From an uncultured Candidatus Peribacteria bacterium (GTDB taxonomy: Bacteria > Patescibacteriota > Gracilibacteria > BD1-5 > JAGOOR01): DNA of 34,410 nucleotides. Below are positions 1-34,410 of this stretch, in pieces (the stretch's first letter is position 1; each line of letters starts with the position of its first letter). Under the pieces are notes generated by a model. It worked only from the letters and a program-made list of their open reading frames with translations, was not told the origin of the DNA and did not search any database. The DNA lies in NCBI GenBank assembly GCA_964456455.1, contig CAYVZT010000003.1, forward strand, positions 1 through 34,410, read 5' to 3'. A program made the position numbers and the translations under genes.

Positions 1-370
1 ATATCATCTTGTCAGCATTGAAGATATAGGAAGCATTCTTCTCTGCAAAGTATGGAAGCATGGGGGTAATCCAGTCTCTCGTAAACTCGGCATATTCTCG
101 GTCACTCTGAATTCCGTCCTGAGGAATATCTTCAAACTTTTCTGTTGTTCCGGTAAATCCTTTCTTTGATTCGACATAATCAATTCAGTAAGGTGGATCT
201 GTCAGCAGTAAGTGTATTTTCTGCCCATCCCGCAGAAGTCTCCTAAACATATCTGGATCACGGGAATCTGAAGAATAGAGGATATGGTCTCCGAGGAGAA
301 ATATATCCCCCTGTGTGACTTTAAAGTCATGATGCAATTTTGATTGCTTTGGTGTTTGTAAGTTTTTCAT
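1..370 (-). CDS. DNA methyltransferase (N4/N6, DPPY type), N-terminal part; runs off the window start
   Basis: ATG at 368-370. 'HLLLTDPPY' is followed by in-frame TGA 185-187, giving DPPYG when read as Gly. The frame stays open to nt 2 ('...EYAEFTRDWITPMLPYF...'). The start overlaps the 3' end of the upstream MTase by 44 nt. Confidence 0.75.
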
Positions 371-1637
371 AGCGTTTGATGATTAAATCGATAAAAATAG
401 GTTCATGCTCAAGGAGAAGAGCAGTTCGTTTCAGTTGGTCGCACGCAATCAGAGTGCTCCCACTCCCTCCGAAAAGGTCGAGAACAATATCTCCAACTTT
501 GGTACAGCGTTTGAGAGGTTTCTCACTGAGTGTTGGTGGTTTTTGAGTTGGGTGTTCGTAGGTACCCACGACAAGCCTTTTTGCGAGCCAGAGGTCGAAG
601 AGGTCGATGATGTCTTCAAGGACTCGATTTCACACGCCTACTTCTTTGTCGAGTATCTCTGTAAGGTTTCTCATATCAGGAGATATGTATGGTTTTCATC
701 TTGATCCGTAGGTACAGGGCTCGTATCCGCGATTAAAAGGACTCTGGGGCGTCGCCGTGATATTATTTTTAAGCCAAAGACACACCCTTCTTGGCTCAAT
801 TCCAAGATCTCGATAGATACTCTGCACTCCTCAAATATTGTTCGGGTCAGACCAGCAAAACACATGGGTATCTGGAGTAGCATGTTTGAGTCAGTTGGTA
901 AATGCTTTTATGAGAAATGTCTTATAGGCTTCTGGAGTTTTGTTGTCATTGGTCTTCTTTCCTCCGTATTGCTTCTTGTTACTCACTCATCCGTTATACG
1001 AAATTCCAATGTTATACGGAGGATCATAATAGAGCATTGGTATATTTCACGAGGCTCATGGGAGTGAATGAATGAGCTTGTCTACATCTTCAGACTGAGT
1101 AGCATCTCAGCACATAATTCTGTGATTTCATAAGGCATAGATGTCTCACATTTTGCTTTGTGGTTCTCATAAGGCTTCGAGTTCTTTTTCCGTCTGAAAG
1201 TTATCCTCCTCGACTCACAACATGTTGTCCCACATGGAAGATAACTCTGAATTATCGAATCAGATATCCAAGAGGAGTCAGACATCGAAATCTTTGAGTA
1301 TTTCGAAATCAAAATCTCAGGTATTCTGATTCAACCTCAAATTGAGCTCACGCTCTCGCTCTAGAGAGAGTGAGAGGTAGAGGACTGGCACCTCCTTCAT
1401 TCCAAGAGCCTTACATGCTTCTAAACGAAAATGTCCACCTATAATAATGTTTTTTCTTTCTGGAAAGAAATTAACAATCAAAGGATCGACACATCCATAC
1501 TTTCGTATACTCTCCATAAGGTTCTGCATCTGGCGTTCCGAGTGTTTCCTCGGATTGTAAGTGGCAGGGTTAAGAATATCTATGGGAACATAGACGATCT
1601 TCTGGCGTAGGTCTGAGACCTTGTTTTTCTGGGACAT
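327..1637 (-). CDS. ParB-like nuclease domain fused to DNA methyltransferase (N4/N6 family)
   Basis: Track ORFs 1317..1637 and 327..569 share a frame. The gap between them translates without TAA/TAG once TGA=Gly. N-terminus 'IIGGHFRLEA' is ParB/Srx-like. 'YYDPPYNIG' is catalytic motif IV and 'DLFGGSGSTLIA' is the SAM-binding motif I. Length is 1311 nt (436 aa). Confidence 0.8.
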
Positions 1638-2314: not shown

Positions 2315-2602
2315 TTACTTCCTCGTCGAAACATCCCAAATGCGAGCAAACTCTTCAACAAATTGCTCACCTTTTTTTGTGTCTTTGTGGGAAAGGTCAG
2401 TTTTCCCACAACAGAGAAGATGATTTTTCATGAGTTCTGTGTTCACTCCTCGAAGAAGACCCATAGCCGCATTGATTTGCTGTCCAATGTCTGCACAGTA
2501 AGCATCTTCTTCTATCATCTGACCAATCTTATCAAGTGTCCCCCGAGTTTTCTTGATGCCAAGAAGGAGTTTTTTCTGGAGTTCTGGATTGGATTGTATC
2601 AT
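2315..2602 (-). CDS. csoR: CsoR/RcnR-family metal-sensing transcriptional repressor
   Basis: Complete 95-aa ORF. 'YCADIGQQINAAMGLL...NHLLCC' supplies the Cys...His-x3-Cys ligand pattern of copper-sensing CsoR (DUF156). It is the last gene of the copA operon. Confidence 0.85.
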   Translation of the reverse strand: MIQSNPELQKKLLLGIKKTRGTLDKIGQMIEEDAYCADIGQQINAAMGLLRGVNTELMKNHLLCCGKTDLSHKDTKKGEQFVEEFARIWDVSTRK

Positions 2603-2619
2603 AAAAAATTTATTTTAAA

Positions 2620-3018
2620 TTAGAGCGTATTGATAGAAAAACTGTACATACCCATTCAGCAGGTTCATGCAATTTTTTTACCAGACTCCGGTGTACCGAG
2701 ATCAATCTCTGTTTCACCAGTTGCAGGAAGAGAGTTTCTGTAGTTGAGTGACCGAATAACGAGCGACGAAGAGCAGTCATACGTACCATTTGTCTTCATA
2801 ACAAGTTTTGTAGGAATTCATCACTGAATAGTGGAAGTCTTTGGTTTGTAACCACCTTTTACATCAACAGTGACATATTGTATACCATTTTTTACTACAA
2901 CATTTGCAGTTTTTTCTATAGTGCCACTAGAGGAACTTGAGTTACTTGGGAAAATGATAAAGAGGGCTATTACTGCCAAGATACCAACGCCAAGCCAAGG
3001 AAGAAGAGATTTGTTCAT
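2620..3018 (-). CDS. cupredoxin-like domain protein with N-terminal membrane anchor
   Basis: ORF 2821..3018 continues through TGAs to TAA at 2620-2622. It reads '...TNGTYDCSSSLVIRSLNYRNSLPATGETEIDLGTPESGKKIAGTCGMGMYSF', and the CGMGM motif Gly is TGA-encoded. Signal anchor 'LLPWLGVGILAVIALFIIF'. Confidence 0.7.
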
Positions 3019-3070
3019 AAAGAGGAAGTAAGCAAATAAATTTAGTAAGAAGTAATTTTAGATAAACCAT

Positions 3071-3571
3071 TTATGAATGGTGATCATCATTTTTTGCTAT
3101 TCACTCTCAATGGTCATTATCAAGAGTTGGAGTTATTACAGAAGCAAGAAAATATGATGTACAAAAAATTAACAGAGAAACAGCAATTGCCTTGCTCAAT
3201 ATTTTCCAGAGACTGAATACTTTTATGTTTTCTTTTTTCTGATACATAAAGAGAGAAACAAGATAACCTAATGGCATTATTGCAACACTTCGCCAAGGTG
3301 AATCCAGAAAATGTTGGGCTCACCCAGAAATCATGGCTGTTCCGATGGAGAAAAATATACCAATAAGAAGAGTTGAAATGGAGCCAAGTTTTTCCATTTT
3401 AATATGTTTTTCGATAATAAGACCTATAAGGAATACCAAAATTCCAGATCCAGCCGTAATAAAGCTACGAGTGGTAGAAAAAAATCCATGACTAATAGAT
3501 CACGAAATGAGACCGATGCCTGCGTATTGAAAAAGTGTAGCCGTATGGCGAGAGAAAAGTGACTGTTGCAT
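3071..3571 (-). CDS. hypothetical integral membrane protein with His/Asp-rich C-terminal tail
   Basis: ATG 3569-3571 to TAA 3071-3073, with four in-frame TGAs. About 4 hydrophobic helices. The tail is '...TPTLDNDHGEGIAKNDDHHS'. It sits inside the copper operon. It is absent from the track because every standard-code fragment is under 60 aa. Confidence 0.55.
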
Positions 3572-3595
3572 AAAAAGAAATAAAAAAGAAATAAA

Positions 3596-4603
3596 TTATA
3601 AGTTAATAACAGGATCAATAAGACCAACACTAGCCAATCCTGAGAGCAAAGCAAATAGACCCAACCCTATCACCACAATGCCTGCAGACTTGAAAAAGAG
3701 AGGAGCATGACGAGACTGGGCAAATCATGCTGACCCGAACGAAAGGAGTGCAAGCATAGGAAATGTACCAAGAGCAAAAGCCAGCATAATAAGTCATCCT
3801 GAAAAGAACGATCCACTAGAAAGGGCAGCTATCTGCATAGCTTGCGTAAAACCACAGGGAAGAAAAAATGTTCCTAGACCAATAATAATAGGAGTAAAGT
3901 ACGTATGCTCGATTTTCCTGAAGAACTGAAATATGCTAGAAGGGAGTGTGACATTACTCTGAGAAAAAACTCAAACCAGATTTAACCCAAGAAGTATCAT
4001 AACAGTAGATGTAATAAGTCCGAGCATGGCAGTAAAGGTCGAGTTAATGCCAATAGCGTGTCATAAAGTTCCCAATACTCCACCTAGCAATGCAAAGCCA
4101 AGAATTCTGCCTGCATGGAAGAGGGTGAAAGTTTTTTTGTCACTCAACGTATCTTGCCCCACTGTTGCAGAAAGTGAGAGAACAAGTCAACCAACCACAG
4201 CCAGACAGCTGGAAACAGAAGCTATAAGACCAATAAGAAAACTTGTAGTGGGCGTTACCTTTCCTCAAAAACCAAAATTGAGAATGCCCGATTTCTGGAG
4301 AAGGAAGAATAGACCAAGAACAATAAGACCGAGAGGTATTGCCCGCCAGATAGTTCCATCTTGTTGTGGTTTTTCTTTAAATTTTTCCTGTGCTAAATTA
4401 TAACCGTAGGATTTTATCTTCTCAGATAAAGCACAAACCAGGTCTTCGCTATTTTCATCATTCTCACATTCGATACATACAGTCTTTTGTTTCAAATTCA
4501 CAGAAGCCTGTTTGACACCATCTTGTTCAATGAGGGTCTCTTCGATGAGGATTTTGCACGAGGGACAATGTGTCCCCGAAACATGAAAAGTATATTGTTT
4601 CAT
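3596..4603 (-). CDS. heavy-metal-associated (HMA) domain fused to DsbD_2/TauE-like permease
   Basis: ORF 4265..4603 ('HVSGTHCPSCKILIEE', a CxxC HMA fold) continues through TGAs as a polytopic membrane domain ('...GTFFLPCGFTQAMQIAALS...') to TAA 3596-3598. 1008 nt. Starts 8 nt after the copA stop. Confidence 0.75.
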
Positions 4604-4611
4604 AGAAAAGG

Positions 4612-6903
4612 TTAGAGTTTTACGTTTCTGAGTCGAAGCGAATTACTGACGACTGTTATGCTTTCAAATGCCATGAGCGCACCAGCAATCGCTGGCGAGA
4701 GAAGGAAACCATACCAAGGGAAAAGGATTCCAGCAGCAATAGGAATACCAAGTGAATTATAGCCAAAAGACCAGATAAGGTTTTGCCAAATGGTTCTCTT
4801 GGTTTTTTTTGCTAGATTGATAGCTTCTGCTACTTTGCCAATATCCCCATTAAGAAGAACAATATCAGCACTCTCAATAGCAATATCTGATCCATCACTC
4901 ATTGAAATTGCTACATCTGCTTGAGCAAGCGCTGGGGCATCATTGACTCCATCACCAATCATGGCGACTTTTAACCCTCTTTTTTGAAGATCTGAAATGA
5001 TTTTTAGCTTGTCTTCTGGTTTCACATCGGTATAGACTTCATCGATCATAAGCTCACGTGCCACAGACTCTCCAGTTTTTTTATGATCACCCGTTGCCAT
5101 GACAATCTTGAGACCAAGCCTTCTGAGTTTTTCAATTTCATCTTTTGCGGCAGGCTTGATGGTATCATGTATCTTTACAAGAGAAATGACTTCTTTCTCG
5201 GTGGCTAGATATATCTCTCTACCACTTTCAAAATGTTTCTCCTCAAACTGACCTTTCACCTTTTCTGATGGTATTCATATTTTTTCTGCTATATAAGCAA
5301 GAGATCAAAAGAAATAGAGTTTTTTTCATCGAGCAGTTAATCATTTTCCAGGGACTTCCTGTATATCTTTAAGAGGAAGAGTTTCTGTCTTAGTCTCCCG
5401 GAGATGCTTCGCAATACTGGCAGAAATGGGATGTCTTGATGACTGTGTCATGCTGTACACAATGGATGCTATATTTTCTTCATTTGAGCTAGTACTAGAT
5501 TGTTTTTTCGGAGAATAAATACCTTCGACAGAAAGCGTATTCTCTGTCAGTGTTCCTGTCTTATCAAAAACAATAGCCTGAACGTGAGCAAGTTTTTCTA
5601 AACTCTCAGCATTTTTGATAAGTATTCCTCTTCGAGCACCAGCACCGACACCTGTAATAATAGCTGTAGGTGTAGCAAGGCCAAGGGAACAAGGGCAAGC
5701 TATAACAAGAACTGCCATAGTGGAAGAGAGTGCGAGAGCAAAGGATTTCGAAAATCCAAAAGTTCCTGGAGCAAAAATCATCCAAGAAGCAAAGGTAATG
5801 ATAGCAAGAGTAAGAACAACATACACGAACACTCCTGAAATCTTATCTGCTATCCGCTCAATAGGAGCCTTTGAATTCTGAGCGTTCTCTACAATCTTGA
5901 TAATATGAGAAAGTGCTGTGTCTCGACTATCTTTTTCTACCTTTATTTTGAGAATACCGTAGAGATTTTGAGTCCCTGAAAAAACCCCGTCTCCCACGAG
6001 CTTATCCACAGGCATAGACTCCCCAGTAAGATTTGACTCATCGACCGTACTTGATCCGCTCATTACTTTTCCATCCAATGGAATACGTTCATTTGGTTTC
6101 ACAATAACAATATCACCAATTTGTACTTCTTCTATAGGTACCTCTATTTCCTTTCCATCCCGTTCAACCAGGGCTGATTTACTCGTTAATTCAGCGAGCT
6201 TCTGAAGAGCTTCATTGGTTTTACGCTTAGCTCGTGTTTCGAGGAGTTGTCCCAAGGCTATGAGACCAATAACGACGATAACAACATCGTAGAAATTCGA
6301 ACGAACATCAAGGTAAGGCGTTAGAGGTTCTTCAAAGGCTGTCACAATAAATGAATAGAGAAATGCTACCATTGTTGAGATGCCCACGAGAGTATCCATG
6401 TTTGCTGTTCTTGTCCTGATAAATAGTCCAACTGCTCGTATATATTTTCTTCCAATGCCAAAAAGGACAAAAGATGCAAAGATGGGCATGAGATGGTGGA
6501 AAAATTCATACCATGTTTCAGACATCTCACCAATTATCTTATTATCCGAAAGAACTTGCCAGCCCATCATAAAGAATGAAAAAAGGATCATCGGTACAAC
6601 AAATCTCATTTCAAATGTCATATGCTCTTCATTGCCATGATTGTGCATATGGGAAGTTGTTTTTTCTTCGGAATGTTTATGCTCAGAGCTTTCTCATTCT
6701 CCTAGGGAATATGCGAAAGGGGTAATAGCAGAATTAAGGTCTTGCATAGGCAAAATCTTATCCGAAAAAACAACTGTAGCTTTTTCAGAAGCAAGACCAA
6801 CAGAACAGGATTCCACTCCTGGAATTTTAGAAATCTTCTTTTGGATAAGGGAAACACAGCTAGCGCAGTGCATGCCTTTTATTTTATAAGTCTTTGTATT
6901 CAT
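4612..6903 (-). CDS. copA: copper-translocating P1B-type ATPase
   Basis: Track ORFs 6694..6963, 5341..6648 and 4612..5259 are one frame, joined by TGAs at 6694, 5341, 5326, 5305 and 5275. Motifs: N-terminal HMA 'GMHCASC', 'CPC' ([13 protein letters not shown]), 'DKTGTLT', 'VPGKG', 'MATGDH', '[10 protein letters not shown]'. Start chosen at '[10 protein letters not shown]'. Confidence 0.93.
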
Positions 6904-7822: not shown

Positions 7823-8255
7823 CCATTTCGACTTTCCCATCGTTTGATACTTTCCATGCTTCACGTGGTCTATCACAGTAGAGCTCGACGCCGATATTAT
7901 CTGGATCACGGAGATAGATTGCCTCAGATACACCATGATCGCTCGCGCCACCGAGAGGATATCCTGCATCGATGAGTCGCTTCAATACTTTCGCGAGCTC
8001 CAGTCGTGATGGAAATAAAATAGCAAAATGATAGAGCCCACTCGTGCGAGGAGGAGGCGGTGGTACACCCTCACCTTTCCAAGTGTTGAGTCCGATGTGA
8101 TGATGATATCATCCTGCAGAGAGAAATACTGCTGAATCACCATAGTGCATCGTTACTTCAAATCAGAGTATGTCACGATAAAATGAAAGTGAACGATCAA
8201 TATTGGCAACAGTGAGATGCACGTGTCCAATCATGGTGTGTGGATGGAGAGTCAT
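7776..8255 (-). CDS. VOC (glyoxalase/bleomycin-resistance/extradiol dioxygenase) family protein
   Basis: ORF 7776..7985 extends upstream through two TGAs to ATG 8253-8255: 'MIGHVHLTVANIDRSLSFYRDILGFEV...FLSAGGYHHHIGLNTWKG...'. Both TGAs sit on family-conserved Gly (ILGF, AGGYHHH). Confidence 0.85.
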
Positions 8256-8280
8256 GGAGAAAGTATAGAATTATTTTAGA

Positions 8281-8313
8281 AAATAAAAATACCTCTCAAA
8301 AATGGAGAGGTAT
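8281..8313 (-). terminator. rho-independent terminator after the H1-like gene
   Basis: 9-bp perfect stem ATACCTCTC/GAGAGGTAT (8289-8297 and 8305-8313). On the minus strand it is followed by TTTTATTT. It lies 22 nt downstream of the TAG at 8335-8337. Confidence 0.5.
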
Positions 8314-8334
8314 AATTTTTGAAAAAAGGAAGAA

Positions 8335-8475
8335 CTATTTCTTCTTTTTAGCAGCAACTTTTTTCTTAGCTGGTGCTTTTTTCTTAGGAGCAGCTTTAGC
8401 AGCTTTCTTAGGAGCAGCTTTCTTAGCAGCTTTCTTAGGAGCAGCTTTAGCAGCTTTTTTCTTAGCGAATGCCAT
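8335..8475 (-). CDS. histone H1-like Lys/Ala/Pro-rich small basic protein (46 aa)
   Basis: 'MAFAKKKAAKAAPKKAAKKAAPKKAAKAAPKKKAPAKKKVAAKKKK'. The DNA shows a ~21-nt imperfect tandem periodicity (gctcctaagaaagctgctaa-). The track ORF 8335..8580 starts too far upstream in AT-rich spacer. Confidence 0.7.
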   Translation of the reverse strand: MAFAKKKAAKAAPKKAAKKAAPKKAAKAAPKKKAPAKKKVAAKKKK

Positions 8476-8738
8476 AGAAAAAGAATTTAAAAAAATAAAA
8501 AACGAACGTAAAAAAATTGTATATATTTCTCTATTTTTAGCATTAATTAATACCTTTTCAAAAATCATATTCATGTACATACATATAATAAAAAATTATA
8601 AACAGATAATTCAAAAGATAGAGAAGATGTGATATGTAAAAAGAAAAATGAACCCTTATATAAAAAAATAAATTATTTCAATATTAAAAAAATAAAAAAT
8701 AAAAATATTTTTTGAGAAATTATTTTTCGAAAAAGAAA

Positions 8739-9512
8739 TTATTTTTTCGGCGGAAAAGGAATGAGAATACTCGTACGACGTATATATTCCGAGTATCATT
8801 CTCTCCCCTTCAGATGCTCTTCTAGAAGAGGTATTCAGGTGACATATATAATCAGATAACTGAGTAAGATTGGACTCAAAATTCATATCATACTTTCGAT
8901 ATTTTGTATACTCATCAGATACAAACTCCACCACATAAGAAGCTCTCAAAAATAGTTTGGATGACGAGAATATTTCCACAGTCATGACTGAATTATTTTT
9001 CATTTATTCTTCGGATTACGACGAAATTCTGCCATCTGCTTATCTGCGAAAAATTCGCATAAGAATCAAATAATCCAGAGTATCGATCCTACGATAAATT
9101 GTGGAGACAGAGAGATATTTTTTGTAAATAAAAATAAAAAAGGAAGAGAAATAATTGCGATAAAAAATCACTGCAAAAGAAAAATAAAAAAATATGATTT
9201 CACAAAAAAATATTTTCACCACGAAGTACGAAATGCCGCATAACGAGAATCTTCGCCATGACGCATGAGTCTGAGAATAATGTGATAGACGAGGCGGAGA
9301 GACCAGATCATCACAAACACGAGTGGCAGAAGTGCTATGGAAGAAGGAGAGAAAAAAAGAAAAAACATGAATGCTATAATCCCATACGAGAGTCACCACA
9401 CCATATCGACAATATCTGTTCGACGAAAAAACAGAGCAACACAATACCACGATGTCATCCAGAAAAAAAGTACGATGCAGAGTGTGAGAAAAATTGGGAG
9501 CATATAATACAT
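8739..9512 (-). CDS. DUF1295 / steroid 5-alpha-reductase-like membrane protein
   Basis: ORF 9393..9617 continues through about 10 TGAs: '...[38 protein letters not shown]...YVTGIPLLEEHLKGREGYSEYIRRTS...'. RHPNYFGE and VTGIP are family signatures with TGA-encoded Gly. Start taken at 'MYYMLPIF' (9510-9512), stop TAA 8739-8741. Confidence 0.8.
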
Positions 9513-9578
9513 ATTAATAAAGAAACAAGGATATACGATTTTTTCACACAAACAAAAATACAAATAAAAAATGATTCT

Positions 9579-9682
9579 GTCATTCCGAGCGAAGTGAAAC
9601 GAAGCGTGGGAATCCATGTGTCGGTATTCTAGAGATTCTCACGGTGCTTGTGCCCCATATTTTCTCAGCACCTCAGAATGAC
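9579..9682. repeat. pair of head-to-head short intergenic repeat units
   Basis: Unit 1 is 9579-9615, gtcattcCgag...gggaatcc. Unit 2 is 9632-9682 on the opposite strand, gtcattcTgag...gtgagaatctc. Termini GTCATTC (9579-9585) and GAATGAC (9676-9682) are inverted. Non-coding gap between DUF2177 and DUF1295. Confidence 0.5.
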
Positions 9683-17884: not shown

Positions 17885-19735
17885 ATGATAAAAATACACC
17901 CCCTCTTCGTCATGCCAGCACTGTGTCTACTCACCAGTTGCAGTGTACCATTTTTAGACAATCAAAAAGTAGATACACCAATTCCCTTGGAAAATATCCC
18001 TACTTCATGAATGGTGAATACGCCACCAATAGTAGGACCAGAATTACCTCCGCCTGTATACACTTCCCCTTCAGCAGTAGAAAATGCGATACCTAGCAAT
18101 CAACCCCCTCAGAGTGTCGAGTTACCCCTTGCTTCATCACTCTGAAAAGAAAAACTCTGCGTATCAACACTCTGTATCAATCCAGACAAACCATATTTTG
18201 AATTCTGAGACTCCTATGTGCAGTTCTATATAAATTCAAAATTTATCAATGATCAACCAGTCACACTAGAGCCAAAAGATTATGTGTACGCAAAAAAAGC
18301 ACAGGTCACAACATATAGTAATGGTGAAAAAAATGTCAGCTCAAGTGATCCAGATGTCATGGACAATATCATGATACAGATAAAAAAGGATGGTACATCT
18401 GCAGACTACAGCGAGATGTGGATGGGAGGAGAATTCAAAACTATCAAAAAGATGTCGAACGGTATTCTCATGATACAAAAAGGAACATGAAGTTGTGGAT
18501 GAGCAAACATCGAACAATACTTCATAAATGAAAAAAATATACAAATACCTCTCAAAAATGCAGTAGGAGAATTTCCAAAAAAATTCTCAGTAGCAGGCAT
18601 CCCCTTTGACTCGTATGTACCCGAAGGTAATGTCCTCTACCAAGGTGTCGCAAATCTACCTGATGCTCCAGAAAGAATACATGATATATGGTCTATAAAC
18701 GACAATATAGGTGAAAAAATAATGGACTATATTCTCACCAAAAAACGCTTCAATAAATCATACGCCATAGAATTTAGAGAGTATCCTGGTACGGTATTTT
18801 TCTATAAATCATGAGTAGAAAATTCTATCGCTGTAATACGCCTCCAGACAAATGGAAAAAAAATAGATAAAAATGGTGTCGTCCAGGACAAGGCTCTCAC
18901 ACGGGAAATTTTTGACTACTACAAGCCCTACGATGAGAACAATTTTTACATACCCCAAAGCATACAAAAAAAGGGGGCACAAGATTACAAAGTATTTACA
19001 GCCGATGATATCGACAGCATCATGCCTGTTTTCCGAGTAAGACTTTTCGTTGATGATTATTATCTCCTCTATACGACTCCTGAGTATATCTCCGCTCCCC
19101 TTGCCGAGATGTGTAAACCAGTCATCTACGTCTATGACGACACCTCAAAAGCGAAATCAGTAAGAGTAAAGATGCCTCTTGGTGGAACTTTTACAAAGAT
19201 TATTCCTGACTTCAATACCAATCATGATACATGGATTTTCTCTGCGAATAAAACAGGACAGATTGTTTCTCCGGGAAATACTGAAACATTTGCTTACCTC
19301 TACTATTCAGCTGATATTCCTGGCTATGAATTTAACACACGGGGTTGGCAAGTCTGGTGAAGAGATGTAGAGAATTTTTTTGAAGAAAAACTCACAAAAG
19401 TTGGACTCAACAAAAAAGAAAAAGAAGATTTTATAGAATATTGGAAAAATGAATTTGAAGACAATACGCTCTATTTTATATCATTTAAATTCAACAAAGA
19501 AATCGAAAAATATATACAGCTGTCTTTTTCTGAGAACCCGAAAACTCTTCTACGAGTCATCATGGAGGCTTATCCTCTTGATCAGCAGCTCAGAAAAGCA
19601 AATTATGCATGGCCTGAAGTAGGAAGCAGATTTGATCGTGATCTTCTCACAAGTTTTGAACGAACAGGAGAATTTGATGTCGTAGAATGGTGATGAACGA
19701 TCTATAAATCAACTGGTGATGTCACGATATACTAG
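17885..19735 (+). CDS. hypothetical lipoprotein (616 aa)
   Basis: 'MIKIHPLFVMPALCLLTSC' gives a signal peptide plus lipobox L-T-S-C. ORFs 18218..18490 and 19022..19360 share its frame. I translated the whole span with only TGAs interrupting, and it ends at TAG 19733-19735. No family recognised. Confidence 0.7.
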
Positions 19736-21392
19736 ACGTATCTGTGTCTATGCCTGATTGGGGGTTATCATTCTATCGTTATGAGCCTTATTTATCGTAT
19801 TTTCTGAACAACCTGATGTCTCCATTGTGGTACTTCCCCATCACGGAATCACAGGAAATAATATAGAAAATTTTTATAAAGATTTGAGTAAAAAAGAGAT
19901 GCATTTTGACACCGTATTTGTGGTATCACCTGATCATTTTTGACTGACAACTGCAAATGCCGAATCACTCCCAAAAGGCAATCAAAAAATATGTTACCGA
20001 GATATCTGCGGGACAGCTACTTCTCTCATAGGCTATGAAAGCAAAAACAGCAAACAACTCTACCCAAAACATGCTTCGATAATAGAGCATGGCCTCGGAG
20101 AACACATACAGAGAATTGTTCGTTATTTCCCACAAAGTACTATCGTGCCTCTGGTCGTAAAAAGAGAAAATCATGTGACAGATTTGGGTCGAAAAATAGC
20201 CAAAGATATACTCTATTTTTCCAAACATAAAAAAACATTGGTCGTGATTTCTGTGGATTTTTCTCATCATGTCCCAGAACCATTTGCTCAACTCCATGAC
20301 CAGAAAAGTATCAACACTCTCTCATGGGGCGAGACGAGAGATTTTGATGCTCTCGAAGTAGATTGTCGTAATTGTTTATTTATAGGAAAAGAAATTGCAA
20401 AAAAAGTATGAAAACCATATATAAAAATATGGGGCCGAACAAGTGTAGAAAGTATCTCCGGAGAAAAAGTGGGGACACAAAATACATCTCATGTTTTTGG
20501 TACATTTGTCAGCGAAAAAATCTGATCTCCTGGGGCGTTATTTCTCTTTGCTGGTGACACACACTGGTGAAGAGATTTTGATAAAAATGAAAAAACAAAA
20601 CCATTATTATTTGAGAGAATCATGCGTATTTTTTATCAAGAAAATGATATATCAAAAACCCCCTCTACATGGTATCATCGTATTCTGTCTGGGTTTGATG
20701 ATGTCGTAGTCAATTTTGAATCAACAATTGCTGATACCCATACATGCATCGAAGATGGAAAAAAAATACAGATAATTACGAAAGAAGAAAATATAAAAAA
20801 ATTGGCTGATATCGGTATCAATACGGTCAGCATAGCGAATAACCACACGCGAGATTGTGGAGAAAATATATTTCAAAAAATGTACGATCTATTTCCAAAA
20901 TATGGCATAGATGTCGTAGGAGAAAATCATGATTTTATAAAAACAATTTATGGAAAAAAATACGCTTTTGTATCGATAAATACAATCGAACAGAAATATG
21001 ATATAGACTCAAGTATCAATCGGATACACGAATACAGCGCAAAAAAAATACCCGTCATAGTCAATATACACTGGTGACATGAATATGAAAAGAAACACAC
21101 ACCAGAACAAGAAGCCATAGCACACAGACTCATCGATGCCGGAGCGAGGCTTATCATCGGACATCATCCACATGTCGTACAAGAAGAGGGATATTATAGA
21201 GGAGCCCCTATTTATTATTCTCTTGGAAATTTTGTCTTTGATGAGACATCTCCAGAAACTGAGCAATGATGGCTCGTATGATGTGATATATCAGAGTCAC
21301 ACACTTCGTGTCAAAAAGTATCAATATATCGCTGAAGAGATCTGACTCTAGGATGGAAACTCAATATTAGGAAAACTGGGCTAAATCAATAA
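19719..21392 (+). CDS. fusion protein: N-terminal TM anchor + Memo/AmmeMemoRadiSam-B-like domain + CapA (PGA_cap) metallophosphatase domain
   Basis: Single frame through ORFs 20145..20411 and 20622..21077. Memo-like motifs: '[10 protein letters not shown]', 'VVSPDHFG', 'IIEHGLGEH', '[10 protein letters not shown]'. CapA motifs: '[14 protein letters not shown]', '[12 protein letters not shown]', 'VNIHWGHEY', '[10 protein letters not shown]', 'YSLGNFVFD'. TAA 21390-21392. Confidence 0.75.
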
Positions 21393-27140: not shown

Positions 27141-27215
27141 GCCGGGGTAGCTCAGTGGTAGAGCAGAGGCCTGAAAAGCCTTGTGTCGGTAGTTCGATTC
27201 TACTCCTCGGCACCA
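27141..27215 (+). tRNA. tRNA-Phe (anticodon GAA)
   Basis: GCCGGGGTAGCTCAGTGGTAGAGCAGAGGCCTGAAAAGCCTTGTGTCGGTAGTTCGATTCTACTCCTCGGCACCA. Acceptor stem 7 bp, D-arm GCTC/GAGC, anticodon loop CTGAAAA, T-loop TTCGATT, encoded CCA end. Confidence 0.92.
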
Positions 27216-27227
27216 TGTAATATACAA

Positions 27228-27255
27228 CCTTGCACAGAAATGTGTGAGGTTTTTT
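27228..27255 (+). terminator. rho-independent terminator after tRNA-Phe
   Basis: Stem CCTTGCACA/TGTGTGAGG (9 bp including 2 G-U pairs), loop GAAA, then TTTTTT. It lies in the 56-nt gap before the convergent giant gene's stop. Confidence 0.6.
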
Positions 27256-27271
27256 AAATATATGCCCCTCT

Positions 27272-30200
27272 CTAGAATGAGCAAACCCCTCCTGAAAAAT
27301 TGGCTGGTCTCTGAAGAATAGGGGGCAAGCTTGCATTATTGAGGATCTGATAATTGATCTTAAAGGTGCAATCCGGGTTACCATCATTCGTAATCATACG
27401 AAAGCGCTCTAAATCAGTCTGGAGCGGTGTAGCTTTGATAGTTGCCGAGTTTTGCACAAGAGACGTGCCTGAGAAATAATAACCCGTGGTATTGAGTGGC
27501 ATAAGCTGGCTGAGATCAGTAGAAGAAAGTGAGCCACCTCTATGGTTGAAACTATAGAGTCGACCATTCAGGACAAGACGATTAGTCAGGAGATTCTTAT
27601 CTGTAACAGTATTTTTGAGAGCACCATTTACCGCATTTATGAGAGCACCATCAGCTACTATGATAGCATCTATTCTGGTCACGGATGGATCGATGAGTAT
27701 GTTTCACCCTCCTCCTTTAGCATTTTTTCGAGCTATTATGACGAGTATTTTATCACCGCCACTATATTTGATATCAGAATTAATTTGGATGTTTTTACCT
27801 TCTGCCAGAACCACTTTTTGACCAGACCCAGTCGGAGAACTCGAGAGAGTGAGGAGAGATCCGAGCGTTGTCGCAGTAGAGAGAGCTGGAGTAGAGTTTT
27901 TATCTTGATAATAATAGTATCACTGAGTATTCCTTTGATTAGAAGGAAGTCATTTGATATACGCAGCATTATTCCAAGAAAATGCTGTCGAATCAGGGAC
28001 ATACTGGCTCACAATATGAGTATTGATATTACCAGTAAGGAGACTCTGAAAACAGGAAGTGTTTTGGATATCGAGAGACAGAGAATACCCATACTGTTTT
28101 GCTGCTATTGCTGCCTGGAGAGGAGTCTTGTAGGTCGTGATGGTTGGAAGAGGGTTCATGTTCGTCGCAGAGAAGCACCCGACAGGATCAGATGGGTAGA
28201 CACCACGAGTGACGTTTCAGGCGTTGTCTTGGACACAGTAAGAGATGAGATTAGTAGTCGTAGTTGGTGAGCTCGTGACGCCGCTTGCAGACAGATTAGT
28301 GAGATTTTGTGTCATAGAAGCACCCGGTTGTCCATAAGCATAGTAATCACCGTTATCTGCAGCTGTGAGGAGACATTTTTCATCAAATTCGTAGAGGGAT
28401 GGATTGGCATTATACGCAGTTTTTGAGAAGACTCGGTAGAGCAGAGCGGGTGCTGCATTATTTTTCTGAAGAGCGGGAGTCAGGCTCGGAAGAGGTCTCA
28501 GCGATCCTGGCTTCCAGAGTCATGATCCACCCTCAGCTGGGTCGACAATAGAAAAACTCACCTTATTGGCAGACGGAGTTGAGACCGTGACTTTTGGTGG
28601 TACACTATCGACGCCAATATTTGTCACAGCAAGAGGGGTCGAATTCCCTGCTGTATCACGAACTGTGACACTTCCTGGAATAGTGGAATTATTGGTAAAT
28701 GTGCGAGAGTAGGTCATAACATCGGCTCATTCTCTGATATCTGGACTCTGTATACCAGGAGACCAGTACTGCTGTGAGCCTACTTCGAGAAGTGTCGGAG
28801 CACATGCACAGTCTCCCCCATCGCTCTTACCAGGCTTGTCATGACAGGTGATAACTGCTAGAACTGGCTGCTTTTGCCAGAGTTGATATTGAGTCGGTGA
28901 AAGCACTGCATTATTTCCTGTAAAATACTCAATAGAAGCCTCAGGTGGTACACCATCTCGAGCGAGAGAGTACAGTGTTGTCTGAAAACTACTATTATCA
29001 CCAGAGAATACAGTAACTGGCAATCCTCCTGTTGGGAGAATCATCGTACAGTTCGTTACAGGACTGAGAGCTCATGGTGGTTGACTCGTTATACACTGGA
29101 GATTTTGTTTTTTTTCGACACCATTTTCTCTGTATGTTATTTCTGGATAAATAGGACTAGCAGTGGTTCCACTATTTTTGTACATCCATTTCACACACTG
29201 AGCATAATCAGGACTTTTTTCATTACATCCTATATCGTAGGTAAAGGTGGTCGTCGATGAACAAACAGCATTTGAAGAAGGTGTAATAATGAAAGTTTCT
29301 GGCGTAGAACAATCTGTACCAATACAGGTTCTGATCTTACAGCTATCATTGGTACTATATCCATCACCTACTTTCACGGCACAAACTACATCAGTAGCAG
29401 TATTAAATGTATAACTTGGAGTCGGATTTGATATAAATCATATACCAAGAATATTGAACAAATCTGGTCAGAGAAATACTGTCTGATTACCCTGAGTAAA
29501 TCTATATGGCAAAATCGAAGTACCTGTATCAAGTCGACTACCACAACGAAACGAAGCATCAAAAGCTGACACATTGCTCATGTCATCTGAAAGTGTATCA
29601 CCCTTATACGCATATATTTTGCTACAACCTTGGACACTAGCATCACTCTGGTCTTTCACTACGATAGTTTTCGTACATGAGTCAGGTGTCATACTCGCCG
29701 CTTGAGCACTTGAAGAACCGTAGAGACATTTGACAGAATAGGTACCTGGTGCCATGAGCGGTCATACATGTTTAACAGAAGTACCATTTAAGAATAAACC
29801 TGATGTATAGACCGTACTTCACGATGTGATTTGATACCGAAAATGTGTGGTGCCTGGTTTTGCATCACAAGTGATATATGGTATGTCTACTTTTGCTTTG
29901 AGCTCGCTCGGAGCATGTGTACCACACTGACTCACGCAACTATTCGTAGCACAATCCCAACCCAAACCAGCTGGACAACAGGCGGCTTCATTACAGGTAG
30001 GTTGAGAGACATCTCGTGTGCATCGTAAACCAATTTTGGCTTTACAGTTGTTACTATCATCACTGTCTCCATTGATACAATCACCACAGTCACATGATTC
30101 ATTATCACTACAGATACCATCATTGTTACACTGTGAGCTACAGTAGCTCGTTGGTGCACAACTTGTATTTTTGAGCCAGAGGTTGATAGGACCAAAATAT

Positions 30201-31915
30201 GTATTGGCCATGCCCGCTGATGTACCAGAACCAAATATAACAGCACCACTCGCATTAATCTGTGTCGCATATCATGGGTCGACAGTGTTTCATGGGAAAT
30301 TTGAGATTCTCTCGACTCCATTGACGAAGAGGTCAACCGTATCTGTGGCTGGATCGTAGACCATCTCGTAGGTGTTATATTGATTGGCGCCTCAAACTAC
30401 TTTGTACTTATAGGTAGAAGCTGAAGGCGCTATGTAAGTGGTGCCTGAGTCGGTGAGACCTATGACGGTTGGAGTTTTATCAGCATCAAGTCAGATAACA
30501 AAGGTGAATCGTTTTTCTCATTTCGTTGTATTCTTTCATCGAGCAATTTCAAAGTACGAAGCGAGGAGCATAGAAGCAGTGCTGGTTGGGAGAGAGGCGG
30601 ATATGTTTTTGAGTTGGATAGTGAGCTTCCCTCCGTTATTAAATAAACTACTGAGTTCTGTTGTTGAGAATTTTTTATAAATTATTGCTCCACTCCCTGT
30701 ACCAGCATCGTTTACTTGCCAGACAGGTTTTCATGCATCAGTTTGAGTATTACCAAGTCCACTTATATAAGACCATCCTTGTGTAAGAGGGCTCGTGTTG
30801 GGAATGTATTTGAGAGAAGAAGTGAGATACTCTGAACAGTTATTTACTGGATTTGGCACAGTAGAACAATCAGTATTTCATGAGACACACTGCCCACAGC
30901 TACACATCTTCTGCCCGAGATCACAGCCACAGTCATCAGCGTTTGCGACACATTCATTTCGAGAAGCACAGTAGACAGGCTTGTCCGCTGGACAATACCA
31001 TTCACACTTCTGAGGCCCAGTACAGCCTGCTTGATTGGCACGTCGGACGCGTGCAATATCGAGATTACCAGAAAGATTTGCCTCATCGTCAGTACATTTG
31101 ATACCATTTGTTGCGACATTACCAGTACAGACAATAGGTATACAGGCTTTTGGTGTTGCAGAGGAATCAACACGATATCCATTCACACAGGTGTATTCAC
31201 ATTTTTCAGATGTATTTGTCCCATTTATCAAGAGATTGGTGGTATAATCTTGAGTAAATGTATACGGGAGGGTCGTTGGCAATTCTGCATTAGAGATAGG
31301 AGTGGCATTAGCAGTACTTATACTCGGATTAGCATTACATCGCGCCAGTCGACATTGTGTCACGCCTCCAATCGTATCACGGACATATCCAGTATTACAG
31401 GCATATTCACACTTTGTGGCATTGGTTGCAGGAGCACCAGAAAGTTCCTGAGCGTAGCTTACGATGCTAAAATTATAATTCTGTGTAAGAGTATATGATG
31501 GTCAGAGTTCAGAAGAAGATATCACATGAGCGTTGGTTAGGCTAACACTGGGGGTGCTAACACATCTGAATCGCGGTCGACAATTCATAGTAGCCCAGGA
31601 CCATCCACCAGTCGCACTACAAGCTGTCGATCCTTCATGCGCACTACAAGCAGATCCATAGCCACAATGGGGCCCCTGGTCATTGGATCTTGATGGACTA
31701 CAATTACTACCAGCATAATGACATTTCCATGTAATCTGATAGTTCCCCGGAGCGGTCTGAGTACCTGAACATTCTTTATAAGCATCCATGACTGTCCATC
31801 CAACTGATTTTGAAACAGTACAAGAAGCATTTTGAGAGTTTACCGTATCATAATTCGCCCAACCAGAGGAAAAACAAAAAAGAACAAAAAAAGAAATTAA
31901 AATTTTATACTTCAT
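27272..31915 (-). CDS. giant secreted cysteine-rich multidomain protein (1547 aa), putative surface adhesin
   Basis: Ten track ORFs (31502..31915, 30878..31363, 29819..30211, 29468..29755, 29072..29377, 28727..29044, 28520..28717, 27950..28159, 27272..27682 and the small fragments between) are in one frame. I translated every gap and found only TGAs (about 20), no TAA/TAG. Signal peptide 'MKYKILISFFVLFCFSSGWA'. Repeated 'KCEY(A/T)C..GY' modules, a jelly-roll/LamG-like segment, an Asp/Cys-rich segment, and a conserved C-terminal module ending 'GGVCSF'. Confidence 0.85.
28179..28228. repeat. 50-nt block identical to 34216..34265 (copy A)
   Basis: ccgacaggatcagatgggtagacaccacgagtgacgtttcaggcgttgtc occurs in both paralogs. 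It encodes DNAGNVTRGVYPSDPVG on the minus strand, including an in-frame TGA. Flanking sequence is only about 80% identical by eye. Confidence 0.85.
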
Positions 31916-31918
31916 GAT

Positions 31919-33316
31919 CTATTTTTTAGTCCAAAATGGTGCATGAATAGCATACGGTATATCTGTTTTCTTTTCGACGAGAGAATAACCCACATTTTCC
32001 CAGAGTCACGAAAATTGGTCATATACCCAAAACCCTGGTAAGCGAGATTTATTTTTGATCGTCCATTCAAAAGTAATGGGATACTGAGAGGTGTCCTTTT
32101 GACTCTCCATATATCATGCAAGCTGATCTTTTTCGACGAGCAGAGCCACCTTTTCTGGAGACTGTGTTTCATCATAATCCGCAGGATTGAAATATGGTGT
32201 TTTTTCATTTGCAGAGTTAGCCTCTACAAGAGCATTCAATTCACGATTTGTGGTCCAGACCTGCATGGGATAATTTTTATACACTTCCAATCTCTGTCCT
32301 TTCATATCATAGAAAAATATAAGTGGCATACCGTAGGTCAGCAAGCCTTCCGCAGCAAATCAGCTCGCATCAGTAAAAGCATCGGAAGTCAAAAGTTCAT
32401 TTGCCGTTGCACGATCAAATTCATATACCACAACTCTCACTCGACCGAGATAAGGGGATTGATTGCTATCACGAATAGCGTCAAAAGGTATCAGATATTT
32501 CGTAAATGGATTGGTAATCTGGTATCATTCTTTGGTCACAGATCCACCTTTGCCAGTGATAGTTTTTTTCTTCGTCTCTATGAATAATTCTTGATAGAGT
32601 CGTTTGAGGGTAAAATCTTTTGTAAATGATTGATCTTTCGTGACAGCATAAAGTGGATCTATCAGAGGTACCGTGTGTACACCAGTTGCATAGTCTGGAT
32701 GCGAAACCTGAAAACGGAGTTTCCGAGGTCAAAGAGTATTAGTATGAAATTCATATTTTCATGTTGCATCAGATAACACAAAACCATCTTCTCCAAAAAG
32801 AGAAATTTTAGCGTTTTTTATAGGTTTTTTTTGTTCATCATAAATGTATCCAGAGAGAGTGATTTTGGCTGTAATTTGATCACAAAATTGAGAATCAGTA
32901 CAAATTTCTTTTTGAAATTTTTTATAGTTTTCCCAATCCCCTTCCAAGGCGCTCAAATATCAAAAAGATCTCAGAGTGGTACGATCTCTTTTTCAGGCAT
33001 TGTAATCAGAACGAATCTTATCTCGTGTCGTAAGATAATCCAGATTGCCTTCGAGCAATTTAGTATAATTTGCACCGAGATGATCTATCACTTCTGTCTG
33101 CATTTTTTTTGCTTCGATGATAACTGGGTCTGCCAGAGGATCAGAAAATACATTCTCTGTCTTTGGATTTTTAGAAACAGATGCTTCAGAAGAAACAGTA
33201 CGAAAAAAGATATTTCTCGCACGAACAAATTCTGGCAAGTACATGCCCGAAATAGAAATCCCGACGCCCACCAAAAAACAAACAATACAAAACAAAATGA
33301 GTCGTACGATTCTCAT
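31919..33316 (-). CDS. membrane-anchored hypothetical protein with carboxypeptidase-regulatory-like beta-sandwich segment (465 aa)
   Basis: ORFs 32993..33397, 32759..32956 and 32114..32344 share a frame. I translated the 32345..32758 gap and it is open. Start at 'MRIVRLILFCIVCFLVGVGISI' (TM). 'ITLSGYIYDEQKKPIKNAKISLFGEDGFVLSDATGKYEF' resembles a CarboxypepD_reg fold. The TAG is 3 nt before the giant gene's ATG. Confidence 0.7.
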
Positions 33317-33326
33317 CAGAAAAATT

Positions 33327-34410
33327 TTAGAAACTACAAGTCCCCCCGGTATAACCACTTGGTTTTTGAAGAAGAGTTGGAAGCGCTGAACCAGCAAGAG
33401 TATCGTAGTTTACAGTTGTCGTACAGAGAGCATTTCCATCATTCAATATAACACGGAGTCTCTCAAGGTCGACAGTACCAGCTTGTGCTGGAGTAACAGG
33501 TATTGAAACAGAATTAGTTGTCAATATTCATCAGACAAACATTTTTGCTGTACTAGTAACTGGTTTAAAATCATTAGCATCAATCACCAACGATCCCCCT
33601 CTCGTATTGAAGCTGTAGAGTCTTCCATTGATAGTGAGACGATTTGAGAGTTCATTTGGATTATCAATCCAGTTCTTGGTAGTTATATTAGTACCACTCA
33701 GAACACCATTCATGAGAGCGCCACCATCAGCAATGAGGATAGCATCTATTCTAGTAACAGATGGATTTACATAGATGTTTCCACCAATAGAACCTGTACT
33801 ACGAGCGATGAGTATGAGAGTCTTGTCTGTGCCAGAGTAATCAATGTTTGAATTGATCTGGATGTTACCTCCTTCGACGATGACCGCTTTTGATCCAGTA
33901 CCAGTTGGAGTGCTGTTGATGCTGAGAGTATTTCCAGCTATGTTCGAGAAGTAGTAGTATCCATTAGTATTTGGAGTGTTTGTATTCTTGAGTGTTGCTG
34001 GAGTAGACCAGTTGAGAGTATTGGTCGTACTTGGATTGTATTGGCTCGTGACGAGAGTGTTGATATTGTTTGAAAGGATACCACGGAAGCAAGTAGCGTT
34101 CGTAGCATTTTCTGAGAGAGAGTAGCCATACTGGTTTGCTGCCATAGCTGCTTGAAGTGGAGTCTTGTAGGTCGTGATGATTGGAACAGGATTCATGTTG
34201 GTCGAAGAGAAACATCCGACAGGATCAGATGGGTAGACACCACGAGTGACGTTTCAGGCGTTGTCCTCGATACAGTATGCTATGACATTACCATTAGGGT
34301 TTGTATTACTAGCAGGATTTGCAACCTCAACACTGAACGATTGACTCATGGTTACTCCTGCTTCATTTCGGTGATAATAATTGAGGTTGTTCGATGGGCT
34401 AATACACGTT
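33327..34410 (-). CDS. large secreted protein, C-terminal part (paralog of the C-terminal module of the 27272..31915 product); 5' end outside the window
   Basis: ORFs 33531..34196 and 33327..33524 are joined by a TGA-TGA pair. The frame stays open upstream of 34196 to the window edge ('...VIAYCIEDNAGNVTRGVYPSDPVGCFSSTNMNPVP...'). It ends 'GGTCSF' at the stop 33327-33329. Confidence 0.8.
34216..34265. repeat. 50-nt block identical to 28179..28228 (copy B)
   Basis: Same 50-mer read directly from the sequence lines at 34201-34270. Confidence 0.85.

Follow-up and report, generated by a model that had tools for sequence, protein, structure and literature searches.

The 34,410-nucleotide stretch of contig CAYVZT010000003.1 analysed here (hereafter the window), from an uncultured Candidatus Peribacteria bacterium, ends in three minus-strand genes, designated A, X and B. 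A and B encode giant cysteine-rich proteins with export signals, and X encodes a partner with a membrane anchor. We interpret these genes as closing a chromosomal island built of X-plus-giant cassettes in tandem, and give about an even chance to the reading in which the cassette products form tethered modular surface fibres for cell attachment. Profile comparisons further indicate that the core of the giants' C-terminal module is homologous to a protein encoded in the type IV pilus operon of standard-code Patescibacteria.

Gene structure and genetic code of the A-X-B locus

Four features define the locus, the three genes being open reading frames (ORFs) under translation table 25:

27272 to 31915, minus strand: gene B, 1547-residue secreted giant protein, 20 in-frame TGA codons
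31919 to 33316, minus strand: gene X, 465-residue membrane-anchored partner, 8 in-frame TGA codons
33327 to >34410, minus strand: 3' end of gene A, last 360 of 1477 residues, 3 in-frame TGA codons; the window edge cuts the gene
27226 to 27251, no strand assigned: possible terminator, a hairpin (11-bp stem) plus T-run between the B stop and the convergent tRNA-Phe gene; consensus match only

An earlier note on this DNA had placed three table-25 genes here and had stated that table 11 would fragment them. Both statements agree with what we found: only 10 nt lie between the stop codon of A and the ATG of X, 3 nt separate the stop of X from the ATG of B, and under table 11 the longest ORF across the last 7.1 kb has 245 codons. 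A, X and B are tightly coupled genes. Full-length A (1477 residues) was taken from two contigs, L002 (12214-16647) and L003, both 100% identical to the window. Downstream, the gene for tRNA-Phe (GAA; 27141-27215, plus strand) directly follows NusG and converges with the B stop, and the hairpin at 27226-27251 may possibly close the A-X-B unit as a terminator. Scans for promoters and terminators gave shuffle-level results only, with nothing beyond this hairpin. An rRNA or non-coding RNA origin of the locus was rejected, the only Rfam match being tRNA-Phe.

The 34 in-frame TGA codons of full-length A, X and B were compared with the corresponding positions of paralogs and orthologs, which gave 56 alignments to glycine encoded by a non-TGA (GGN) codon and none to tryptophan. 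Within B, the second G of the family-invariant GGNI motif is encoded by TGA1404, and TGA1233 supplies the G of DNAGNVTRG. Code 4 (UGA = Trp) is ruled out by these counts, and the alignments place the organism among bacteria using code 25 (UGA = Gly; Gracilibacteria and Absconditabacteria). In-frame TGA codons are also present in housekeeping genes of the window, namely those for CopA, SerRS, PheS and RseP, and a ParB-methylase gene has 16. Because these genes carry in-frame TGA and match Pfam strongly only once TGA is recoded, the window is ordinary chromosome of a code-25 bacterium. The relatives of the locus are metagenome-assembled genomes labelled Gracilibacteria or Peribacteria. Three database entries (P0019, P0020 and P0021) had been translated with UGA as Trp, and conserved Gly positions therefore appear in them as Trp. 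One of these, P0019 (a Logan contig, 1836 residues), is B-like, with an extra N-terminal extension of about 480 residues that contains hydrophobic segments.

The locus belongs to a larger array that recurs in related genomes

Three metagenome contigs from different samples (L002, L003 and L004), taken as independent assemblies of one genome, match the window at 100% identity over 1.6-3.4 kb and run on beyond its edge. The gene order that they reveal is A0, three small secreted paralogs, a lipoprotein, X0, A, X, B. A0 encodes more than 2380 residues and runs off the end of each of the three contigs; A carries a Sec-type signal peptide; and X0 is a paralog of X with the same CarboxypepD_reg match. 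The last ~900 residues of A0, A and B are 40-50% identical, whereas their N-terminal parts are unlike one another except for one 100-residue Cys module and a short Asp/Cys-rich element. The earlier description of a three-gene cluster does not survive this extension, since the locus is the end of an array with at least three giants and two X-type partners. These comparisons make the unit a series of X-plus-giant cassettes in tandem and not an operon of three genes.

The pairing was observed well beyond this genome, with an X homolog directly upstream of a giant at no fewer than 10 loci in at least 6 genomes. The complete X0-A-X-B order was also found in L009/L026 and in L011/L028. In L009 and L011, where the B orthologs are 72-74% identical to B over its conserved region, the array is followed by orthologs of tRNA-Phe/NusG/SecE...PheS, with 81-84% nucleotide identity in the flanks. 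L001 contains three tandem giants, and the end of its array adjoins NusG/SecE/PheS. In OZ246415.1, a closed 1.05-Mb chromosome that is a composite of L005, L014, L028 and L011, the orthologous cassette island of this relative occupies about 32 kb, or roughly 3% of the genome. Synteny in relatives and assembly integrity were among the points on which the earlier note had made its proposal depend. The X-plus-giant pairing and the position by tRNA-Phe/NusG/SecE recur in related Gracilibacteria genomes, and the locus is therefore not a chimera; in addition, independent assemblies agree with the window at 100% identity over 3.4 kb.

The island of OZ246415.1 spans the record start and reads X, B-like, a 2416-residue giant, a 1978-residue giant, small genes, X0, A-like, X, B-like. 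The three small secreted paralogs between A0 and X0 (L002 7260-9864) have about 270-300 residues and the motif GDILTAGEWNR, and one of them matches phage tail-fibre PHROGs (phrog_11355, E 4e-5). Their copy number is polymorphic, because L003, from the same genome, has only one of the three. A phage origin of the cassettes themselves was rejected: A, X and B have no PHROG match, and no relative was found on IMG/VR contigs.

The C-terminal module is related to a type IV pilus operon protein

Three module features were delimited:

27275 to 28264, minus strand: C-terminal module of B, residues 1218-1547, ending in GGVCSF; defined by homology to the A module and by family alignment A1
33330 to 34289, minus strand: C-terminal module of A, located by tblastn with the B module
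27392 to 27892, minus strand: module core, B residues ~1342-1508, GxKxxxVxGxNIxI...GGNIxIDPSVTxIDAxxxADG...LxxNGRxYSxN...DLExxR, common to a wider Patescibacteria family

The modules of A and B are 49-53% identical (E 2e-114; 53% by tblastn). This module had been called private to the giant protein; it is in fact common to A, A0 and B and, in its core, to a family found across Patescibacteria. When species-representative genomes were scanned, the full module (38-70% identity) was found only in about ten Gracilibacteria or Peribacteria metagenome-assembled genomes, in several copies each, and partial matches were found in other Gracilibacteria and in standard-code Patescibacteria. An exhaustive profile search returned 921 representative proteins at E<=1e-3, mostly table-11 fragments.

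The distant relationships were assessed with hhalign. The giants' module (A1) aligned over 137 columns with a family of secreted Gracilibacteria proteins of 480-990 residues (probability 99.6%, E 8e-24), and this family in turn aligned with a family of proteins encoded immediately upstream of pilM (98.2%, E 4e-14). Direct comparison of A1 with the pilM-upstream family gave 97.2% (E 4e-11) and 94.1% (E 1e-7) over 57-71 columns. The pilM-upstream protein, of 450-690 residues, is membrane-anchored, Cys-rich and encoded by standard-code Patescibacteria. At all 24 loci (3/3 genome, 21/21 metagenome), pilM lies directly downstream of it on the same strand, and in L043 (8447-10444) its gene opens a complete pilM-pilN-pilO-pilB-pilC-pilin-pilD cluster and lies 6 nt ahead of pilM. 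According to these alignments, the module core and a type IV pilus operon protein of standard-code Patescibacteria are homologs. Neither the module family nor the 480-990-residue or pilM-upstream families have a Pfam model.

Pronounced differences accompany this likeness. The pilM-upstream protein (e.g. OY970357.1, or that of L043) has in common with the giants the C-terminal core GGNIxIDPxVT... and a Cys-rich extracytoplasmic region. Unlike the giants, it has its own N-terminal transmembrane anchor and W-rich and NF033662 repeats, and always lies by pilM, whereas the giants reach 1500-2700 residues, have a cleavable signal peptide and are encoded at a distance from pil genes, with X as partner. 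The 480-990-residue proteins (L030-L045) resemble the giants in the module over ~140 residues, in their Sec signals and in code 25, but are shorter, end in ...EY-x-P-x-x-x-x-PPP-x-F instead of ...GGxCxF, lack the 600-residue stalk and were not seen in X cassettes. Proteins of the pilM-upstream family (L043, L046, L041 and L047-L067) display W-x-W-x-D-x-x-G-W repeats and acid_disulf_rpt repeats beside the GGNIxIDP core, and the L043 protein matches NF033662 with E 1.8e-24.

The AlphaFold2 model of the module of a TGA-free ortholog (P0002) had a mean predicted local distance difference test score (pLDDT) of 64, with 83-93 in the conserved core, and Foldseek found no neighbour for it at E<=0.001 in PDB or BFVD. 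A likeness to ComZ (6qvi) was dropped at Foldseek rank 48 and E 0.48. An identity with DUF7305 was likewise rejected: one of 17 family members matches it (E 0.009), and no paper mentions DUF7305.

The giant proteins are modular, with variable N-terminal and conserved C-terminal parts

B can be divided as follows:

31856 to 31915, minus strand: signal peptide, residues 1-20 (MKYKILISFFVLFCFSSGWA), predicted from the n/h/c-region pattern
29978 to 31855, minus strand: variable Cys-rich N-terminal part, residues 21-646, differing among A0, A and B by BLASTP
30860 to 31165, minus strand: shuffled module of ~100 residues rich in Cys, residues 251-352, ~50% identical to A residues 507-608 (E 2e-26)
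30146 to 30841, minus strand: possible ConA-like lectin domain, residues 359-590, with sub-threshold Pfam matches only
29996 to 30130, minus strand: Asp/Cys-rich element, residues 596-640, several copies of which are also in A0; no NCBIfam or Pfam repeat match at E<=1
27275 to 29977, minus strand: conserved C-terminal region of ~900 residues, residues 647-1547, common to A and A0 at 40-50% identity; β-rich, with an Ig-like segment

The N-terminus of B (MKYKILISFFVLFCFSSGWA/NYD) has the n/h/c pattern of a Sec-type signal, in keeping with the earlier description of B as a signal-peptide protein, and no internal transmembrane-like segment was found in it. Together with the membrane anchor of X (below), the signal peptides of the giants support a predicted extracytoplasmic location of the products. 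B contains 69 cysteines (4.5%), mostly in residues 1-400 and 600-700. Among the paralogs, BLASTP alignment was obtained only from residues 596/647 onward, apart from the one shuffled module. The Ig-like part of the C-terminal region matches, as a profile, Big_13-type repeat proteins.

Domain assignment was attempted by scanning Pfam, NCBIfam and PHROGs with A, X, B and eight sub-segments at E values up to 10, and nothing above threshold was obtained. With E<=1, A and B had no Pfam or NCBIfam match, and neither had a PHROG match; in particular, EGF, TSP3, Big and PKD were not matched in B by Pfam or NCBIfam. No toxin, enzyme or immunity domain was found in the giants in Pfam, NCBIfam or PHROGs, and sequence searches of PDB with B, X and the module profile gave no match. 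The earlier note had recognised no enzymatic motif and no described system here; in our searches no curated Pfam or NCBIfam cut-off was reached, and no PDB sequence matched. The individual domains that had been proposed fared less well. EGF-like Cys modules were not borne out, with no EGF-like or Sushi match for B even at E<=10; paralog A gave one Sushi match (E 0.067, segment scan). The Asp/Cys-rich stretch is present as the element at residues 596-640, but its Ca-binding label is unsupported, as neither the acidic double-disulfide repeat (NF033662) nor TSP3 Ca-binding repeats were matched in B by NCBIfam or Pfam at E<=1. For the proposed lectin-like jelly roll, the segment scan (E<=10) of residues 359-590 gave Laminin_G_3 at E 0.073, scoring 13.7 bits where the cut-off is 27.6, and Sial-lect-inser at E 0.082. 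As both matches are sub-threshold, a ConA-like lectin domain in B is a lead only. A part of another giant, in OZ246415.1, shares 51% identity with this block.

Known routes of surface attachment were also sought. A ends in ...PSGYTGGTCSF and B in ...PANFSGGVCSF, with no LPXTG sortase anchor and no hydrophobic tail. No HemolysinCabind match was obtained for repeats-in-toxin (RTX) proteins, and genes for the ABC, MFP and TolC components of a type I secretion system were not found nearby.

X is a membrane-anchored protein with a predicted transthyretin-like domain

Two features were assigned in X:

33245 to 33316, minus strand: N-terminal hydrophobic anchor, residues 1-24, hydropathy 2.34 over residues 1-19
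32654 to 32860, minus strand: transthyretin-like/CarboxypepD_reg β-sandwich, residues 153-221, from PF13620 and an ortholog model

X has a single N-terminal hydrophobic helix, which fits its earlier description as a transmembrane-anchored protein; its paralog X0 and homolog P0028 have lipoprotein-like N-termini. X matches Pfam PF13620 with E 3.6e-7 and 30.9 bits (cut-off 32.3), and four of its homologs P0020-P0028 carry a precomputed PF13620 match. The AlphaFold2 model of the TGA-free ortholog P0022, 65% identical to X, had a pLDDT of 82. In Foldseek it matched the transthyretin-like domains of carboxypeptidases D, N and M (3mn8, 2nsm, 5aq0 and 1uwy) with E ~1e-5 and a root mean square deviation of 3.3-4.0 Å over ~90 residues. 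From this ortholog model, X is predicted to contain a transthyretin-like β-sandwich; no informative Foldseek neighbour was found for the rest of the model.

Other features of the window

At the start of the window, a methylase fragment (2-370, minus strand), cut by the window start, adjoins a fusion of ParB_N with an N6/N4 DNA methylase (321-1637, minus strand; 16 in-frame TGA codons, Pfam E 4.5e-22 after recoding). A copper-handling cluster (2315-6903, minus strand) comprises genes for a CsoR-like repressor (2315-2602), a cupredoxin-like protein (2620-3018) and a CopA-type P-type ATPase (4612-6903). The segment 7800-11100 includes the lowest GC content of the window (0.32 at 8001-9000), and its table-25 ORFs g7, g8, g10 and g11 have translations that look unlike real proteins; around the DUF1295 gene (8739-9617), this segment may be non-coding or degraded. 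Further on, a 616-residue lipoprotein with no Pfam match (17885-19735) precedes a fusion of Memo-like and PGA_cap (capsule synthesis) domains (19719-21392, plus strand).

Discussion

How the products of the cassettes might work together we infer from their sequences. The giants would be exported via Sec as disulfide-rich, modular proteins. Their conserved ~900-residue C-terminal region, a β-sandwich stalk plus the C-terminal module, would form the cell-proximal base, which either would be held at the envelope by X or would dock at the envelope or pilus site used by the pilM-upstream protein. Since X is membrane-anchored, translationally coupled and co-conserved with the giants, it suggests itself as the tether. 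The variable Cys-rich N-terminal part, including the possible ConA-like lectin domain, would then be the distal end, binding the surfaces of host or prey cells, and tandem paralogs with different tips could provide a repertoire of specificities. There is a precedent, in that giant surface proteins have been proposed to serve attachment in Absconditabacteria (PMC8080830).

Several points weigh against tethered fibres. No adhesin, lectin or anchor domain reached a curated threshold in the Pfam and NCBIfam scans. Some giants (L016, L020, L022, L024 and L025) have no X in the flanking sequence examined, so that X is not obligatory for every family member. The moderate model of the module, with no significant structural neighbour, means that its fold yields no functional clue. 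PilM gave no tblastn match in the window or in the giant loci, the window genes being unrelated to pili. Which end of the giants lies next to the cell is an assumption, and attachment of the giants and X to other cells, like their binding, localisation and expression, is a prediction from the genes.

The homology to the pilM-upstream protein raises the alternative that the giants are accessories of type IV pili, in which the module would dock on the pilus or its machinery, the tips would be displayed by or beside pili, and X would be an assembly or docking factor. We consider this unlikely, even though the module core is homologous to the first gene product of the pilus operon (94-97% directly, 99.6% and then 98.2% through the intermediate family), the gene in question was followed by pilM at every locus and by the full operon in L043, and type IV pili are known host-attachment organelles of candidate phyla radiation (CPR) bacteria (PMC11452946). 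Against it, the homologous stretch covers only ~60-140 residues, and the role of the pilM-upstream protein is itself not established. Neither the 34-kb window nor the flanks of the giant loci contain pil genes. The giants A and B have Sec-type and not prepilin (class III) signal peptides, X has a plain hydrophobic anchor, and no N_methyl match was obtained. A bolder proposal, to which we give somewhat less credence, is that the module core is a previously unrecognised docking domain for type IV pili, ancestral in the protein preceding PilM, which code-25 Gracilibacteria would have grafted onto giants with exchangeable tips and the partner X. Such a pilus-linked cassette system for host recognition would, if real, have no described counterpart.

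The remaining readings are weaker than those of fibres and of pilus accessories. It is improbable that the giants and X constitute a surface coat or S-layer-like canopy, with X as membrane stalk and the giants as outer sheet, by analogy with SlaB and SlaA. The two-component layout, in which the gene for a membrane-anchored β-sandwich protein precedes that for a secreted giant, would suit such a coat, as would weak Foldseek matches of an X ortholog to SlaB (8qox_B, E 1.6e-4) and of a giant to Deinococcus HPI (8cka_B, E 0.02). These matches, however, involve generic β-sandwich domains with template-modelling scores of 0.25 and 0.14, respectively; the Pfam and NCBIfam scans detected neither SLH nor any other S-layer domain, the high Cys content is atypical, and several divergent paralogs with different N-termini would be unusual for a lattice protein. 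Archaeal SlaA/SlaB are also a large secreted protein encoded beside a membrane-anchored β-sandwich partner, but have no sequence similarity to the giant and X, which come as several divergent paralogs in a bacterial host and with no sign of a lattice.

Still less probable is a role of the giants as secreted effectors or toxins against prey or competitors, with X as a helper or protective factor. Large, secreted, polymorphic proteins with domains shuffled among paralogs, in a lineage with predatory members (PMC8080830), are compatible with such a role. The polarity is nevertheless the reverse of that of polymorphic toxins and contact-dependent inhibition systems, the N-terminus being variable and the C-terminus conserved. 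The domain scans reported above returned nothing toxin-like, and X is large and extracytoplasmic, unlike immunity proteins. Lastly, although table 11 fragments the region and most database relatives are fragments, there is close to no chance that the ORFs are artefactual (through a chimeric assembly, pseudogenes or over-read stops), as this is refuted by the conservation of ORFs of 1500-2700 residues in many genomes under table 25, by the alignment of TGA with conserved Gly, along with the need of housekeeping genes for table 25, and by the identity of independent assemblies.

The giants differ from the modular adhesins with which they were compared. Like sortase-anchored MSCRAMMs and RTX giants, A and B combine a signal peptide, a β-sandwich stalk and a distinct distal region. 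Unlike them, A and B have no LPXTG motif, C-terminal transmembrane segment, RTX repeats or type I secretion genes; conservation lies on their C-terminal side, and a second protein would be needed to tether them. The giants of Vampirococcus lugosii (Absconditabacteria; PMC8080830), like A and B, come from a code-25 CPR lineage, have 1400-4200 residues, are predicted at the surface and have been given the same proposed role. The published description sets the two apart, as the Vampirococcus giants contain recognised WD40, PKD, integrin, fibronectin and DUF11 domains and A and B have none. In addition, A and B are Cys-rich, have their own ~900-residue C-terminal region and are paired with X. A Gracilibacterium genome has likewise been reported to encode large extracellular proteins (PMC6851277). 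The idea that giants of code-25 bacteria are attachment factors is thus already in the literature (PMC8080830), in which we found no published description of the giant family, of the X cassette organisation or of the pilM-upstream family.

The giant family is invisible to routine annotation because table-11 gene calling shreds its genes in public databases. Read with table 25, these genes define a lineage-specific family of giant surface proteins, as predicted from their export signals, with swappable tips and a conserved membrane partner. Through the comparisons, the giants and X are also tied to a protein of the type IV pilus operon for which no description exists so far. Gracilibacteria and their relatives are uncultivated and are host-dependent or predatory. 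The locus provides clonable and testable candidates for how Gracilibacteria may recognise and hold their partners.

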